NCBI GenBank assembly: GCA_951406725.2
Contig: OX597814.1
Coordinates: forward strand, 151,466,001 to 151,530,000
DNA length: 64,000 nt
Source of the DNA: Octopus vulgaris
Taxonomy: Eukaryota
Direction of reading: 5' to 3'
The notes beneath the pieces were generated by a model. The model saw only the letters and a list, made by a program, of their open reading frames with translations, ran no database searches and was not told the origin of the DNA. This document shows, in pieces, positions 8,220-43,701 of the stretch. Every line of letters starts with the position of its first letter. Positions within the stretch are counted from its first letter, which is position 1. The position numbers were made by a program, and so were the translations under genes.

Positions 8220-9102
8220 CATTGCATAATATAGTCGTAAGAGAGTATGGTCATGTCTGGAATACCCGTAAAAATTCTATTTTAATGACTTAATCAAGAG
8301 AGAAAGGGCAATTCTATGAGTCTTTGCAGGTTTTACGAGATAGGTGAGAGGCTATGAAGTTACCCTCTAAACGACGATCTGACCCAAACGCTTGCAACAG
8401 GTAACTAAAGAACAAGTTATAGTGTTGGACAGGATGATAACTTAAGCTTTGTCACCCTGAAACAATTTCTATCTACCAAACAATTATGTTAAAAGACACT
8501 TGCTCAAAGTGCTCTGCAACGAAATCGAACTCAAATCTTAATAGTTACGAAGCGAAAGCCTTGACCGCGCATCTATACCAGCACCTGTAAATCTGCTCGA
8601 TCAGAGCCGACTAGCATCACGACATTAACAACAATAAAAATAGCAGCAGTAGCACGCAATTGTATAACAGCTAAAAGGAAGACCGTTATAAAAGTTATGT
8701 TTTTAATTTCTATTCAGCACACAACACAGCTTTTGCAGATTTGCCCACTCACTCATCACGGATGTCAACTGAAAAAAATATTTTCTTTTATTATTGTTTC
8801 TATGCAAAAACATTTGATATACCAGGGAGCCAATGAGAGGACTTCTAATACGCGTCTCGCCCTGACAGGACTTCTAATACGCGTCTCTGCCTGACAGAAA
8901 CAGTAAACATATCTCACTTAGATAGCATACCGTCATGATATATAAGCGGGACCAGCCATCTGAATGTGGCTAGGGACAGGGCGGGGTGGTGGGGGTGTTA
9001 CTGATGCATTTAGCCCCAGGCGACTATAGACGTCACCAGGAGAGCCGACACCATCACGGTGTCCTTGCTAGCCTGTAAAGGGAGATCAGCCTCCCCGAAG
9101 AT

Positions 9103-9166
9103 ACGGATGCTACACACGGACCGGTTTCGAGGTGGTCGCCTCTCGTCAGCGCATGGCAAGCACCGT
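9103..9166 (-). ncRNA. Type I hammerhead ribozyme
   Basis: Minus strand: CATGCG-CTGACGA-GAGG-cgacca-CCTC-GAAA-C-CG-GTC/CGTGTG. Intact core, 4-bp stem II, palindromic ACCGGT stem III, extended stem I. Confidence 0.85.
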
Positions 9167-9432
9167 TCCTCGTTGAGGGACTTCCTCTACAGGCTAGAAA
9201 TATATAGATTTTCACTGTAAACACAGTCACTGGCGTCGAAAATCTGTTCGATAACAATAATAAATCTCTAAGCGAGGTATAAACAGTAACTGCTCTGTAA
9301 TATAAGCGGGACCAGCCATCTGAATGTGGCTAGGGACAGGGCGGGGTGGTGGGGGTGTTACTGATGCATTTAGCCCCAGGCGACTATAGACGTCACCAGG
9401 AGAGCCGACACCATCACGGTGTCCAACGAGGA

Positions 9433-9496
9433 ACGGTGCTTGCCATGCGCTGACGAGAGGCGACCACCTCGAAACCAGTCCGTGTGTAGCATCCGT
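9433..9496 (+). ncRNA. Type I hammerhead ribozyme
   Basis: CTGACGA 9450-9456, stem II GAGG/CCTC, GAAA 9471-9474, GTC triplet 9478-9480. Stem I CATGCG/CGTGTG, extended by TGCT/AGCA and ACGG/CCGT. Confidence 0.85.
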
Positions 9497-10259
9497 ATCT
9501 TCGGGGAGGCTGATCTCCCTTTACAGGCTAGCAAGATGGCTGGTGCCGCTTATATTACAGAGCAGTTACTGTTTATACCTCGCTTAGAGATTTATTATCG
9601 TCATGATATAAATCCAGAGAAAATACAAAACAAAGGCATAAGACGGTCCCCAGATACACCGTGTCTAGTGAAAAGAAAAGAAAAATGACGAGTAGATAAG
9701 ACTGATATAGCGTTGAACCTCTGACTGCTAGCTCACGGCAAATGTCAATGAAACTAAATAGTAATAAGGATATTACAATTTAACTTAGTTGGATTTTACC
9801 AGAGTGAAAACGCATGCTCTCTCAGCGAAATCGTATATATCATTTAATATCCAAGAACAGCCAATTCAGGCCAGTTACAAGCCCGATTCTGAATATCTAG
9901 GAGATCGGTGGTGGTGATGATTGGGTCTTTTTAGACGACAAACGCTTTTTCTACGACAGTAGTACTTATTGTAGTTGGTTGCACTAACTGAGCATTTCTA
10001 TAGAGGCAAGAATGACTGTGCGTTTAAGAGGTTTGCTTTCGTAACAACATGGTTTCAAGTTCGATTTCACCACGTAGCACCTCGTGCAAGTTCCTTCTAA
10101 CATAGCCTCGAGATTACCAACGTAGTTTAAATAAAATCTGCTTAACAGAAATTGCCTGTCAGAGAACAGAAACTATGTGGAAATCTGTCAGAAGATCCGT
10201 TTCTATTCTTGGTCCTTCACTGCCTTCAGCAAAAAAGGACCTTGAAATTTATGACTGAT

Positions 10260-10805: not shown

Positions 10806-11031
10806 ACTCTCTCTCTTTTACTCTTTTACTTGTTTCAGTCATTTGACTGTGGCCATGCTGGAGCACCGCCTTTAATCGAGCAAATCGACCCCGGGACTTA
10901 TTCTTTTGTAAGCCCAGTACTTATTCTATCGGTCTCTTTTGCCGAACCGCTAAGTAACGGGGACATAAACACACAAGCATCGGTTGTCAAGCAATGCTAG
11001 GGGGACAAACACAGACACACAAATACACACA

Positions 11032-11100
<69 letters not shown>

Positions 11101-11262
11101 GACGGGCTTCTTTCAGTTTCCGTCTACCAAATCCACTCACAAGGCTTTGGTCGGCCCGAGGCTATAGTAGAAGACACTTGCCCAAGGTGCCACGCAGTGG
11201 GACTGAACCCGGAACCATGTGGTTGGTTAGCAAGCTACTTACCACATGGCCTCTCCTGCGCC
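10806..11262 (-). mobile_element. tRNA-derived SINE, family A (internal microsatellite)
   Basis: Reverse complement: GGCGCAGGAG..GTGGTAAGTAGCTTG head, GGTTCAGTCCC B box, CCTTGGGCAAGT motif, internal (TA)n, (AAAGAGT)n-like tail. Seven near-full copies in the window. Confidence 0.85.
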
Positions 11263-14127
11263 TATTTTCTGACATTTTCTTATAGTTTCATTTTTACCTT
11301 TTCTGTGAGATTTTCCTGGATATGTTTTCTCTCGATTATAAACAACGCCGTCCAGTTAGAAATCCTCAGTACAAGGAAGTGAGCTGTAATCTCTAAGATC
11401 ACAAGGAGGCAACTACATTTTTGACATACCTAAGATTACGTCAAAAGGTTAGTATTTAGTTTTAGGGCGGGGAAATAAGGCCAATCGAGAAGAGCTGCTA
11501 ACGCTAACGTAGTGTAAATGCATCATATGCTAAAGTGATGAGCCAAATTAGTGACTGAACTTATTAGTCCCACTTAAACCTACTTGATGCACCTACTTTT
11601 CTTCTTCAAGCCATCCCAAACAAGTTCCGATTTTCCGGGCTCCATTCTTTTAAAGCCTATCCTACTTCCCCATTTTCATACATTTGCAATAATTGAAAAT
11701 TAACTTTAATCAGGTTAATTTCACAGAGTTCTCTTCATTTACAACTCACCAGTCTAGAAGGAAGTAAACAAAAATGCCTAAGAGCATATTTATTCTTCAA
11801 AGTAATTGCTAATAATTGTTCCTAATTTAGTCATTAAGACAGCAGTTTTGAGCAGCGGAGACTTGTCAACACCCCAATATTTGGTTATTAATTTATTTTA
11901 TAGATCCCAAAAGAATGAAAGGCAAAGCTAACTTCGGCTAGATTTGAAGTTTGAAAGTAAAGGGCCAGAACAAATACCGCAAGACATTTTTTTCCCTATG
12001 CTCTAATGAGTCTCCTTGATCACTGCCTTATGAAGTAATCTCTTGTAATTATTTCCAGTTTAGGCATAGAGCCAATAATTTTGAGTGAGGTGGTAAGTCA
12101 ACATCATCGACCTCAGTAGTTGACTGATATTTTATTGACATTCGATAGGATGAAAGGCAAAGTTAACCTTGGCGGGTTGTGACCTGACAAAATAATCTCT
12201 TTTGAGATATTGGTTTCAAATTTTGGCACAAGGCTAGCAATTTCGTGGTGGTTGAGGGAAGGTAAATCGATTACATAGACCTCAGTACTTATTTATCGAC
12301 GCTAAAAGGATGAAAAGCAAAATCGACTTCGGCTGAATTGGAACTCTGAACGTAAAGACCGACGAAATGTCACTAAGCATTTTGTCCGGCGTGCTAACGA
12401 TTCTGATAGCTTTTGAGATATCAAACACAAAAAAATGAAGGTAGATTTTCCAGCCACGTTATACTCGCCATTTCTATTGTAATTTCAGTTAATTTTCTGA
12501 AGAGCAGGATGTCCCTCACTCTCACCTTCAAGTGGTACTTGAAGAAATTAAGGTTTGGTTAGAAGAGGAAAAGTTCCATCCCTCCAACTTCTCAGATATA
12601 TCCACCATATATCTTTCGCCATAATCACCTTTTCCTAAAATATTGTCAATGATTAATTAATATTTTGCATTTGTCTCCTTCGCCGATTTTTTTCAAGGAT
12701 TAGTCATTTAGACAATAATAATCATTATTATCACGAAGATTGTAATTTGAATTAAAATTTCTTAGCTTATTGCATCATCTACTTTACTATGAAGTTTCCA
12801 TATAGCTCGCATTCTTGGTTAATTTTCCTCGGACATTGTTTCAGAGATAGCTTTCTTGAAATCCATTTCTACATAAAACGAGCCATTTGATTTAATTTTT
12901 CTCTATTGAACCGAATAATTTAACCGGACTCTTAACAAGCGACAAAAAATGGTCAGCATGCTTTTACTTCTCCAGAGTTCTGTGTCGACATTGATTTGTC
13001 ACATGGAATTTCTTCAAAGAGGCATGGATCATCTCGAATTCCAACACCATAACGATAACATCACCCGTGTGTGCAGATTCAGTTACTCTCTGCCTTAGTC
13101 GAAGAAAAACAGGAGGCAACCCATACAACTTTTGAAGAAAAAAACCTCAAGAACCTAAAGGTACAGAGTAGCAAATCGGTATAAAGATGCACTTTTGGGT
13201 GTCTGCGAATGCGATACGAAACGGTTCCAATAGATGGTCGTTAACTTTGACAACCGGGAAGATATCATAACTCAATGAAGTGATCCAATCTCTGAATAAT
13301 GGATTGAAATCGACTATAGCTATAACATTCGCAAGGTAGCAATGGCTGACTCTGTTGGACACTTTACATTGCTCTGAACTAGTGGCTTTTAACCTAGGTG
13401 GTAGCCAGTTTGAAGGCCTTGTGAACTTAGAAAAGGGGATGGTACATGTCAAGATGGACGTTGGGTGTTTAGAGGGGTCGTGAGTTTTCTTAGAAATAAA
13501 ATATTTAAACCAGGCACAATACTTATATTTTAAACGTTTTTTTTTTCAAAATCACTTAGTTAGGATTAAAGTATGAGTTCGGACATTGTATAATCAGTAG
13601 ACAAAAGCCATAACTAACAATGCACCAAGGCCCAGTGTAATTTCCTTATATAAGTGCTAATTTCTTTTTAGTATTTCGGTAAAAATTACCACAGGGTTAA
13701 TTAGTTCATGCAAATATCTTTTAAGGAGAGACACATCACAGAATGGAATAGTCTAAAGAAGAATGGATACTGTATGATTAAAAATAAGCGAAAGGAGCGT
13801 TTGAAAAACACCATTTAGTAATAGGCGGCACGGAGCTACAAAAAACAGAGTCTGTGATCTTTACTGATATGCAACCTATCACTGTTAAATTGTTAAATAA
13901 GACCCACCCCTATCTTTGATGTAATGTGTGATACAGAGTTTGACTTGAATGGATTTTGCCTCAATCGCACAAGTTTGTACGAAAACGATGGCACTGTTAA
14001 AGACAAACAATAAATTCTTTGTTATCTCTTAGCAGCTGTTTAGCTTCTGGTCAGGCTGAAACAGTATACATATGATCAATGCTATTTTAGCTGTAACAGC
14101 TCAGTTTACATACATACATACATATAT

Positions 14128-39475: not shown

Positions 39476-41975
39476 TCATCATCATCAACATCATCGTTTA
39501 ACGTCCGTTCTCCATGCTAGCATGGGTTGGACGGTTCGACCGGGGATCTGGGAAGCTAGAAGGCTGCACCAGGCTCCGGTCTTATCTGGCAATGTTTCTA
39601 CAGCTGGATGCCCTTCCTAACGCCAACCACTCTGTGAGTGTAGTGGGTGCTTTTTACGTGCCACCTGCACTGGTGCCAGGCGAGGCTGGCATCGGCCACG
39701 GTCGGATTGGTGCATTTTACGTGCCACCTGCATGGAAGCCAGTCAGGGCGGCATTGGCTTCGGCCACGATTCGGATGGTGCTTTTTACGTATCTCCAGTC
39801 CAGGGGTCCTGGCATCTGCCGGGTGCCAGTCATAGGATTGGTTCAATTTCGATTCCGATTTCACTTGCCCCAACAGGTCTTCGCAAGCAAAGGGGGGTTG
39901 CCATAGGTGCCTGTCGTCGGATGAGGTTCGATATCGACTTCGCTTGCCTCAACAGGTCTTTGTGTGTCCAAGGGAGGAAAGGCATGCATAAGTGGGCTGG
40001 ACTCACTTGCCCTGCCTGGTCTTTTCACGCACAGCATATTTCCAAAGGTCTCGGTCGCTCGTCATTTCCTCAGTGAGACCTAAAGTTCGAAGGTCGTGCT
40101 TCACCACCTCGTCCCAAGTTTTCCTGGGTCTACCTCTTCCACGGGTTCCCTCCACTGTTAGGGATTGGCACTTTTTCACACACCTATCTTCATCCATTCT
40201 TGCCACATGACCATACCAGCGCAATCGTCTCTCTTGCACACCACAACTGATGCTCCTTAGGTCCAACATTTCTCTCAGGGTACTAACGCTCTGTCGAGCA
40301 TGCACACTGACATTACACATCCATCGGAGCATACTGGCTTCATTTCTCGCGAGCTTACGCATGTCCTCAGCAGTCACGGCCCATATTTCACTGCCATGTA
40401 GCATGGCTGTTCGTACACATGCATCATACAGTCTGCCTTTTACTCTGAGTGAGAGGCCTTTAGTCACCAGCAGAGGTAAGAGCTCCCTAAACTTTTGCCC
40501 AGGCTATTCTTACTCTAGCTGTTACACTTTCAGCACACCCACCCCCACTACTGACTTGGTCACCAAGATAACGGAAGCTATCAACTACTTCTAGTTTTTC
40601 CCCCTGGAAAGTGACGGAAGTTGTTTTCTGCAGATTTTCAGAGGTTAATGCTCCCGAGCATCTGCCACATACAAAAACCATCTTCCTAGTTAGCCTTCCT
40701 ATGACATTGTTGCACCTCTTATGTGTCCATAGCTTACACTTGGTGCATCTTATAGAGTTTCTACCTACACCTTTTCTACAGATCGAGCAGGGCCATCTAC
40801 CTGAAGGCGTTTGTGATTTGTCTACCTTCCTACTTATTACGACTTTGGTTTTAGCTAGATTGACTCTAAGGCCCTTCGATTCTAAACCTTGCTTCCACAC
40901 CTGAAACTTCTTCTCCAGTTCTGATAGTGACTCAGCAATTAGAGCAAGGTCATCAGCATAGAGGAGCTCCCAGGGGCATCTTGTCTTGAATTCCTCCGTT
41001 ATTGCCTGGAGGACTATGATAATAGGAGGGGGCTGAGGACTGAGCCTTGGTGGACCCCTACCTCTACCCGGAATTCTTCACTGTACTCGTTGCCAACCCT
41101 CACCTTACTAGCAGCGTCCCTGTACATGGCTCGCACAGCTCTCACTAACCATTCATCTATTCCTAGTTTCCTCATTGACCACCAGATGAGGGATCGGGGG
41201 ACCCTGTCGAAGGCTTTCTCCATGTCAACAAAAGCCAGGTACAGGGGCTTATCTTTGGCTAGGTATTTCTCCTGCAGCTGCCTTACCAGGAATATAGCAT
41301 CAGGGGTACTTTTCCCTGGCACGAACCCAAACTGCATCTCATCTAAACTAACTCTCTCTCTAATTAGTTGGCTTATGACCCTCTCTGTAACCTTCATCAC
41401 CTGATCCAACAGCTTGATACCTCTGTAATTATTTGTATCTAGGGCATCACCTTTACCTTTGTAGCAGTTGACTATTATGCTGCTACACCAGTCATTGGGT
41501 ATGACTCCTTCATGTATCACCTGTTTAACTATACGGGTGACTAGGCTATAGCCGACACTACCAGATATTTTGAGCATCTCTGCAGTGATACCTGATGGGC
41601 CTGGGGCTTTCCCTGTCTTCATGCTTCTAATTGCCTTAACTACCAAGGAACTATCAACCCTGATAGCTGGTCCCTCTGTTGGGTCAACGTTCAGCAGACT
41701 CTCTTTATCCCATTCATTTTCTTTATTCAGCAACCTTTCATAGTGGCGTCTCCAAGCCTCTCTCTTTGCATCCTCGTTTAGCGCAAGTGAACCATCTTCC
41801 ATGCGAACACACTTCTCTCCTACCACATCACAATTCTCTCTCACACACTGTCTTGCAACGCGAAACACCTCCAGTCTTTGGTCCTCACGGTGCAGAACAT
41901 TGGCAAATTTTTTCTTATCTGCTTCCCCTCTGGCTAGATAGACCTGTCTCCTAGCTTCCCTTTTAGCAGTCTGAT
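39476..41975 (-). mobile_element. 5'-truncated RTE-clade LINE (frameshifted RT ORF, 3'UTR, (GAT)n tail)
   Basis: RT motifs KAPGPSG, NYRGIKL, QFGF, FVDMEKAFDRVPR, GVHQGSVLSP and LYADD (~40950), then FRYLG and RRLRWYGHVARM...RGRPRKTW, across three frameshifted ORFs. (CAT)n at 39476-39495. Confidence 0.95.
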
Positions 41976-42000
41976 TATGTAATAAATATAATACAATATA

Positions 42001-42621
42001 CAGGGTGCGATGGGTAAATCTTCATTTTATATTTTTAATTTCACACAGTGCACCATTTGTTTTTGATTTTGTTGACTACACAGTATTGTAGGGTTGGTTG
42101 GGCACCATCTTTGATTAAAGCAGCACTGTGATGCAATTCTCTCTGCCTAGAATTTGGAAATGACATGCTGTACTGCTTGGTATTCATATTGGAAGTTCCA
42201 ATATGAACATTTCAGAGTGTTTGGTTGTCAATCTGAAAACAGTCCAGAGGATTCGGAAAAAGTTGGATGAGTCTAGTGGTGATTACAAAGGTACAACAGC
42301 TCAGAAAACACACTCTGATTGTTCTGATAAGAAAATAACTCCTGAATTTGTTGGTGATGACAATGATTGACAACAATTCCTCCAAGTCAATCAGGTTCAT
42401 TGTCAGCGACATATCTTTACTCTCTTTACTCTTTTACTTGTTTCAGTCATTTGACTACAGCCATGCTGGAGCACCGCCTTTAGTCGAGCAAATCAACCCC
42501 AGGACTTATTCTTTGTAAGCCCAGTACTTATCCTATCGGTCTCTTTTGCCGAACCGCTAAGTGACGGGGATGTAAACACACCAGCATCGGTTGTCAAGCA
42601 ATGCTAGTGGGACAGACACAG

Positions 42622-42652
<31 letters not shown>

Positions 42653-43701
42653 CATACATATATACGACAGGCTTCTTTCAGTTTCTGCTACCAAATCCAC
42701 TCACAAGGCTTTGGTCGGCCCGAAGGCTATAGTAGAAGACACTTGCCCAAGATGCCACGCAGTGGGACTGAACCCGGAACCATGTGGTTGGTAAACATGC
42801 TACTTACCACACAGCCACTCCTGCGCCTGTGTGTCTGAGTTTCTTATCAGGCAAGTAGTGCATGAAAACATTCAGTATACCTCATACAAGATGAGAAAGG
42901 GCCAATTTTTTTCCCAAGCCATCAAGGACAAGAGGAAAGACCACACTACAAAGCTTTTGAACAAACTCAAGCATCCCCTCCAACTGAACATGCTTTGGTT
43001 TTTCTCGGACGAGAGAATTTCTGCCAGGATCAGATGGTGAACACACAGAACAACTGTTGGCTTGTTGTGTCCCCAAAACATGTACGGAAAGTGATAAAAA
43101 TCAAACATCCAGTCAACATCATGGTGTCCGGAGTGATCACTAGTGATGGCAACATTATGCTTCCACTCATCTTCCCACATGGCTTCAGACTCTACACAGA
43201 GGCTTACATCAAGTGCTTGGAGGAGGTATTGCTGCCCTGGATTAAAAGGGTAGCTACTGGAAGACCCTGTGTCTGGCAACAGGACTCTGCACAATGCCAC
43301 ACAAGCAGGAGAGCCGAGTCATGGCTGTCAGACAATTTCTGCAACCACATCACCCCTAACAACTGGCCACCTAACTCTCCAGACTGGAACGCCCTTGATT
43401 ATTATGTGTTGGGTGCAGTTGAACAAGTGACCAACAAAATTCCTTCTAACACTAAAGATGAACTGGAGGCAAGGATTATGGTAGCATTCACCAACTTAAA
43501 CAAGGAGACCATCCAGAAAAGTTGCAGGAGATTCCAAAGCTATCTGGAGGTGTGGTTGAGGCCAATGGAGATTTTATTGAATAACTTCACTCTTTAGTAT
43601 TTCAAGATATTTTTATATAATTTTGGTAAATATGTCTTAAAATGAGATGTCAGTGTTATTTTCATTTTTGCTTTAGAGAACAATTTATTTACCACACGCT
43701 G
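42001..43701 (+). mobile_element. Tc1/mariner maT (DD37D) transposon, defective
   Basis: TA-flanked imperfect TIRs CAGGGTG...GGTAAAT / ATTTACC..CACGCTG. Motifs FSDE and WQQDSAQCH...WPPNSPDWNALD, with 37 residues between the second and third D. Frameshift near 43015. Confidence 0.9.
42414..42827 (-). mobile_element. Family-A SINE nested in the maT transposase
   Basis: Homologous to 10806-11262 and interrupts the transposase N-terminal region. Confidence 0.85.

Follow-up and report, generated by a model that had tools for sequence, protein, structure and literature searches.

Retrozymes have been described in print as non-autonomous Penelope sequences (PMC7229834; 10.64898/2026.07.22.740005). 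In those two sources, the non-LTR retrozymes of animals are non-coding tandem units of a few hundred bases with one type I hammerhead ribozyme each; they have target duplications of more than 4 bp and a strongly self-paired predicted monomer, and their transport by Penelope-like enzymes has been proposed. An inverted arm combined with a one-sided tail is typical of Penelope insertions (PMC8557442; PMC3846280), those of endonuclease-bearing elements showing an inverted, 5'-truncated arm, a tail of 30-40 bp at one end and a target duplication of 8-10 bp. The origin of the tandem and inverted structures of Penelope-like elements is stated as open in PMC8557442. In vitro, the Anolis Poseidon element PAc uses two adjacent internal start sites that lie downstream of the hammerhead and bound the tail (PMC11167929). 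Both strands are cut and extended at AT-rich targets, priming needs no homology, a dimer is predicted, and ribozyme cleavage is not required for insertion. The main text of that study reports no strand difference in start site, use of both sites in a single event lay outside its tests, and the steps past first-strand priming were left unvalidated.

Here we describe an element in a 64-kb stretch of Octopus vulgaris DNA (the window, that is, the whole stretch that was analysed). The element is one copy of a young, repeated, protein-free 360-nt hammerhead repeat, arranged head to head between 12-bp duplications. Judged by sequence, it represents a further family of animal non-LTR retrozymes that bears the published Penelope footprint of 'inverted arm plus tail'. 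Our preferred reading, with a probability of roughly 0.78, is head-to-head insertion by a borrowed Penelope-type RT-endonuclease, which would cut both strands of AT-rich DNA and prime one cDNA per site.

Structure of the window element

The element is bounded by two copies of a 12-mer (8931..8942 and 9599..9610, neither assigned to a strand), as an earlier note on this DNA had claimed, and the last 3-5 bases of the left copy also match the element end at start site P. The left arm (8940..9424, minus strand) is 485 nt long, or 1.35 monomers, and runs through monomer positions 187-360 and then 1-311, with its outer end at P. It holds one whole 360-nt monomer (8940..9299, minus strand; tail D', C', B with the hammerhead, and A'; GC 51%), for which a long stem is predicted around the ribozyme, together with a tail copy lying inside the arm (9251..9299, minus strand); the tail is the stretch of 45-49 nt that separates terminal sites P and D. 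The right arm lies on the plus strand in two pieces. The first (9424..9535, monomer 76-187) meets the left arm in a head-to-head joint at 9424, and the second (9534..9600, monomer 290 to ~354) follows a 102-nt deletion with 2-nt microhomology, its tail end lying at site D.

The segment order A-B'-C-D-A-B-D' proposed earlier agrees with this layout but is simpler than it looks: A-B'-C-D is a plain monomer read on the minus strand, and what departs from it is the right arm, a sense monomer copy with the internal deletion. D' is an inverted copy of D, as proposed, but the 71-nt arm also takes in the first 22 nt of A (9251-9321 and 9534-9604, 96%). The A repeat does recur at 360 nt (125 nt, 100% identical, 8940-9064 and 9300-9424), and B does occur on each strand, B and B' forming 112-nt inverted arms (9064-9175 and 9424-9535, 99%). 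The inner end of the left arm and the start of the right-arm deletion (9424 and 9535) coincide at monomer 187, as though one cDNA had jumped to the stopping point of the other.

The earlier note saw no credible ORF, and we concur: no ORF of at least 120 aa overlaps the element, and in the six frames of a circularly read monomer no stop-free run exceeds 91 codons. An endless ORF on the 360-nt circle was rejected, stops being present in all six frames. The element holds no RT plus GIY-YIG ORF and is therefore not an autonomous Penelope-like element. Contigs of three of four independent public runs contain both flank-to-element junctions, each reading from unique flank into the element; neither the insertion nor the orientation of its two ends is therefore an assembly artefact.

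No further copy lies elsewhere in the 64-kb window. Directly left of the element is a 29-nt tandem of 2.2 copies (8834-8897), one copy of which is missing in run X17. A repeat family of ~450 bp has at least six copies in the window (10807-11263 and five similar places), which also contains a broken RT with a PHD-finger match (40490-42021, minus strand) and a weak DDE_3 match (42866-43597, plus strand).

Hammerhead ribozymes of the window and the family

A motif scan of the 64-kb window found exactly two hammerhead cores, at 9450 (plus strand) and 9149 (minus strand), in agreement with the two opposed type I hammerheads noted before. The minus-strand hammerhead (9103..9166) has a palindromic stem III and a predicted cut after 9119; the plus-strand hammerhead (9433..9496) has a G-to-A change in stem III and a predicted cut after 9480, both cuts falling where they had been placed. 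The contrast in stem III, palindromic in one copy and ACCAGU in the other, holds, and the non-palindromic form is recurrent CpG decay, seen in 6 of 92 complete cores. Family-wide, the 92 complete cores comprise 80 that pass a strict test of the core and 12 that fail it. Rfam, which had been named as a check, gave no match at gathering nor at E<=10, and the hammerhead call therefore rests on motif and covariation.

For the latter, 26 rows were chosen by hand from 70 distinct hammerhead regions, with truncated and near-identical regions left out. In this alignment 88.5% of cells are paired, compared with 79.6% after shuffling, and 59 cells are double changes, compared with 25.7; slid structures do much worse. 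The number of pairs with a double change is 11, a value not above shuffles (122 of 500), the 26 rows stemming from only three families. Within that scope of three families, the expected covariation of the hammerhead stems was found, and stem III stays self-complementary in several differing sequences across the families. On sequence comparison, the ribozyme structure is conserved across the three. It resembles the dimer-type hammerheads of Penelope terminal repeats (PMC4209133) in being type I, with a 6-bp proximal helix I, a 4-bp helix II and a 2-bp helix III with a palindromic loop, and differs from the minimal form of that source in being canonical, with an extended helix I.

The predicted monomer fold is stabler than shuffles (z = -4.09). 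In the lowest-energy fold stem II is kept and core-proximal pairs are shifted, so that the predicted ground state differs from the active fold. Folding gives stem II a probability of 0.94 in the monomer circle and ~1e-22 in read-through RNA of the window locus. Transcripts of either strand would indeed contain a ribozyme, as claimed, but the antisense copy is met first and the ribozyme is predicted to be buried in the B/B' duplex. The claimed release of a ~360-nt monomer by self-cleavage does not hold for this locus, since one hammerhead per strand cannot cleave twice. We regard the window copy as a probable dead end; its read-through RNA would form a long hairpin. Multi-unit loci elsewhere could, on the model, release monomers by double cleavage, and self-cutting and circular RNA are predicted for the family. 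Contigs of four runs presumed to be RNA cover parts of the monomer; such contigs carry no strand, end or circle information. A TATA-like motif in segment C (9198-9207, minus strand), which lies ~80 nt upstream of the predicted cut and recurs in family 2, is a possible internal promoter (by eye).

A young family of 360-nt repeats

The genome searched comprises 2.8 Gb in 227 contigs. The hammerhead segment gave 480 first-look candidates, of which the 40 scored are 96-100% identical, and the exact 27-nt core pattern gave 36 matches compared with 0 for the control. At least 63 family loci were read (32, then 31 more, the second set leaving out four family-2 loci and five re-fetches); with these loci and the identity of the scored copies, the young, non-autonomous Penelope-like or retrozyme family supposed earlier is borne out. 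The genome-wide search found both dispersed copies and multi-unit loci. All tandem loci have the order C'-B-A'-D' on the ribozyme strand with a period of 359-360, and a single insertion bounded by P and D may hold an array of up to 7-8 units; one such array is flanked by a 13-nt duplication. In the family as many as five hammerhead units follow one another on the same strand, whereas the window copy has one per strand. The dispersed 150-450-bp tandem repeats with at least two consecutive ribozyme units that mark retrozymes are thus present in the family and absent from the window copy taken alone. Monomer GC, 51.1%, is borderline against the '<50%' of animal retrozymes, low GC being a tendency rather than a criterion of the 2026 detection pipeline (10.64898/2026.07.22.740005).

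Families 2 and 3 are sister families with the same tail and monomer order, family 3 being ~80% identical. In at least three families the monomer order is preserved in full and stem III can pair with itself. At G000:C3:51.5400-51.5422 Mb (L069-L071, L089, L090) lies a six-unit arm whose unit variants repeat with period 3, which fits either a trimeric circle copied twice or a duplication of DNA. Two candidate arrangements around an ORF were rejected: two copies 4.5 kb apart on C4 proved to be solo fragments, and a 397-codon frame at L138 is an unrelated gag-like ORF that interrupts a copy of family 2.

Two-armed insertions mostly join two fixed ends

The outer ends of the insertions fall at monomer 310-315 (P) or 354-360 (D), ~47 nt apart. 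Among 40 two-armed loci, 36 are P+D, two pair a near-P end (300, 302) with D, two pair D with a non-standard end, and none joins like with like; the samples are the top hits of exact or near-exact searches, and tail-based searches would miss short P+P loci. Against a chance of 0.5, 36 P+D in 36 gives p = 1.5e-11. Among two-armed loci picked by the hammerhead alone, 15 of 17 are P+D. Single-armed loci (10 of the first 32 read) divide into five P and five D, so both sites are in use. The same rule is followed by all 16 two-armed loci of sister family 3 (22 loci) and by all eight loci of a coding element, PLE-X, at which both ends were found, its own two ends being ~55 nt apart. Head-to-head insertion is the family norm, and the Penelope-type footprint, in which an arm is inverted and 5'-truncated and just one end carries a tail, is clear at 36 of the 40 loci.

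The family shares with published Penelope insertions (PMC8557442; PMC3846280) the head-to-head arrangement, the one-ended tail, partial tandems, microhomology joints and a preference for (TA)n. It differs from them in having no ORF, arms of pure repeat, a tail of 45-49 nt and a duplication of 12-13 nt. The rule of one P and one D is counted here, where those two sources say 'often' or 'optional'. Inverted arms, tails and two fixed ends did not turn up in a word search of PMC7229834 and 10.64898/2026.07.22.740005, and no count of the rule, or report of it for retrozymes, was found in the literature searched, which excludes subscription papers and supplements.

Target sites

At the 38 loci with standard or near-standard ends, (TA)n is present on both sides in 29, on one side in two and on neither in seven. 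All seven loci with non-(TA)n flanks carry direct repeats of 12-13 nt, counting 1-5 bases common to the element end. Two filled loci (L063, L271) lie at the same base of a host repeat, each with the 12-mer twice. The empty site suggested as a check was not seen as an allele of the window's own site in four public runs but was found at paralogous sites, the 12-mer being single in 23 of 30 other copies of the host repeat; the duplication was therefore made on insertion. This host repeat with its AT-rich 12-mer (L381-L410, L063, L271) is an insertion hot spot. In four of the 30 copies the place is taken by other insertions, which represent at least two further families. Two of the four were read and have the same 12-mer twice: one belongs to a further retrozyme family, and the other is a short head-to-head piece that resembles the end of a PLE-X relative and lies at the same base as the two retrozyme insertions (matched by eye).

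Source and template of the two arms

Of 556 diagnostic comparisons between arms at the same locus, 533 agree (4% discordance); when arms are re-paired by shuffling, discordance is 33% on average and at least 22%. In the window, the two B copies share a base that is absent from the other 62 units covering that position. Both arms of one insertion carry one haplotype. At all 12 loci where neither arm attains monomer length, it is the D arm that contains the tail and the P arm that extends further upstream; 63% would be expected from re-paired arms (p = 0.003, in a test chosen after seeing the data). Each short arm thus holds sequence that the other lacks, and neither is a copy of the other.

The ribozyme cut site is crossed by 67 of 90 arms, and inner ends are not enriched there (2 of 76 within 5 nt, 2.3 expected). 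The template was therefore likely, on sequence grounds, a circle or an uncleaved multimer rather than a cleaved linear monomer. Overlaps of 1-5 nt are found at most joints of the 32 loci first read. Arm lengths correlate in family 1 (rho 0.49) and do not in family 3 (rho 0.02). Family-1 D-arm inner ends lie 1-90 nt downstream of the P-arm inner ends at 20 of 38 loci and upstream at three (permutation p = 1e-4, post hoc). A scheme of 'two polymerases in convoy' is not claimed, family 3 giving six (0-90 nt downstream) versus five.

Coding Penelope-like elements in the same genome

PLE-X encodes an RT, then a CX4CXXC linker and, at the C terminus, GIY-YIG, with weak Pfam hits; by the descriptions in PMC8557442 it would be classed as Neptune-like. 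It is very young and abundant (L184-L200; 1769 candidates, 99-100% identical), and a variant hammerhead-like motif lies upstream of its ends (by eye). PLE-X, an older relative of it and a further element, PLE-Y, were rejected as homologous partners of the retrozyme, each having its own, non-homologous ends. A young, abundant GIY-YIG family with intact 781-codon frames at many loci (L097, L102 and others) is unrelated to the monomer; as a partner, the 781-aa family and its accompanying candidate loci were discarded (monomer likeness 0 of 30). Among 20 more candidate partner loci the only match, L211, is a separate neighbouring insertion. In all, the top-scoring candidates of the four families sampled include no coding element whose ends are homologous to the monomer.

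Two kinds of chimera join the retrozyme to such elements and, with the insertion base that it shares with the PLE-X relative, are indirect links to them. In one (L151:1728-4700, at G000:C28:8.357 Mb, and L152, L190, L191), a retrozyme P arm stands head to head with a 5'-truncated PLE-X D arm; the four loci share junction and flanks and are probably one event, duplicated. In the other (L288:4725-6250, at G000:C13:4.00 Mb), the retrozyme runs co-linearly into the C/T-rich 3' region of PLE-Y in place of its own end, likely by a template switch. At L285 a retrozyme and a PLE-X arm adjoin tail to tail within (TA)n, which shows that neighbourhood can be due to chance.

A model for head-to-head insertion

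We propose that a Penelope-type RT-endonuclease makes a cut staggered by ~12 bp in AT-rich DNA and so exposes two 3' ends. Each would prime reverse transcription inside the same RNA, or RNA of the same source, one at P and the other at D, with AT pairing over a few bases as an aid. Both cDNAs would end at variable points, their far ends would be joined by short microhomology, and repair would leave the target duplication. The ribozyme is predicted to act as a dimer in tandem transcripts from multi-unit loci. The cutting and extension of both strands, the AT-rich targets and the predicted dimer are the same for PAc (PMC11167929), as are the two adjacent start sites that bound the tail; the ends of the present family are AT-rich and match the target over a few bases, whereas priming by PAc needs no homology. 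RNA, cleavage and circles have been shown for published retrozymes (in 10.64898/2026.07.22.740005, only one of nine tested dimers cleaved); for the present family, cleavage and circles are predicted.

The strongest competitor, which we consider unlikely, is that an unseen coding Penelope-like element supplied the copies as clipped terminal repeats, which were later expanded in tandem at the DNA level, with the hammerhead as a passenger and no free RNA circle. Such a route is proposed in the discussion of 10.64898/2026.07.22.740005. It agrees with the in vitro dispensability of hammerhead cleavage (PMC11167929) and with the lack of enrichment of inner ends at the cut site, and the period-3 variants at C3:51.54 Mb fit unequal crossing-over as well as an oligomeric circle. 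Against it, arms that run past the tail enter the same C segment at every such locus read, the two chimeras excepted, and never a family-specific ORF. The long arrays with P and D ends in one insertion, and the monomer order and stem III retained in at least three families, also speak against clipped repeats.

Fold-back self-priming, in which the first arm serves as DNA template for the second, has been suggested for rotifer Penelope elements, whose palindromic junctions are read in this way in PMC3846280. The single haplotype of both arms would follow from it, and inner ends lie within 20 nt of each other (modulo 360) at 11 of 38 loci, compared with 4.3 expected (p = 0.003). It is nonetheless contradicted at all 12 short-arm loci, and the PLE-X chimera unites two unrelated sequences under the same P+D rule; we regard it as improbable, and more so than clipping.

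Inverted repeats and a target duplication also mark DNA transposons and both are present here, but a fold-back DNA transposon, like an assembly error behind the inversion, is refuted by 40 loci so arranged, whose inner joints vary, whose ends are unequal and which have tandem units, by the same layout in an RT plus GIY-YIG element of this genome, and, for assembly, by the junction contigs of the three runs.

Insertion by a borrowed Penelope-type enzyme remains our preferred reading, and it admits a more speculative extension, which we hold possible but doubtful. Each Penelope-type insertion may be a concerted act of a two-headed enzyme for which both start sites are obligatory, one for each DNA strand, and which usually works on a single RNA circle; the retrozyme would be moved in trans by Neptune-like elements whose ends have no sequence in common with it, through recognition of RNA shape. 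If so, these ORF-free insertions would be a countable record of the mechanism, and the 360-nt monomer a minimal substrate.

The model joins the in vitro result of two start sites with both strands extended (PMC11167929) to a genomic pattern. The absence of like-with-like ends in 40 + 16 + 8 two-armed loci, the one haplotype and the arms that are not copies of each other lead to the prediction that one event uses both start sites. What the family adds is thus a counted rule and a small test substrate, and it would tie retrozymes to Penelope enzymes through their footprint rather than through sequence likeness.
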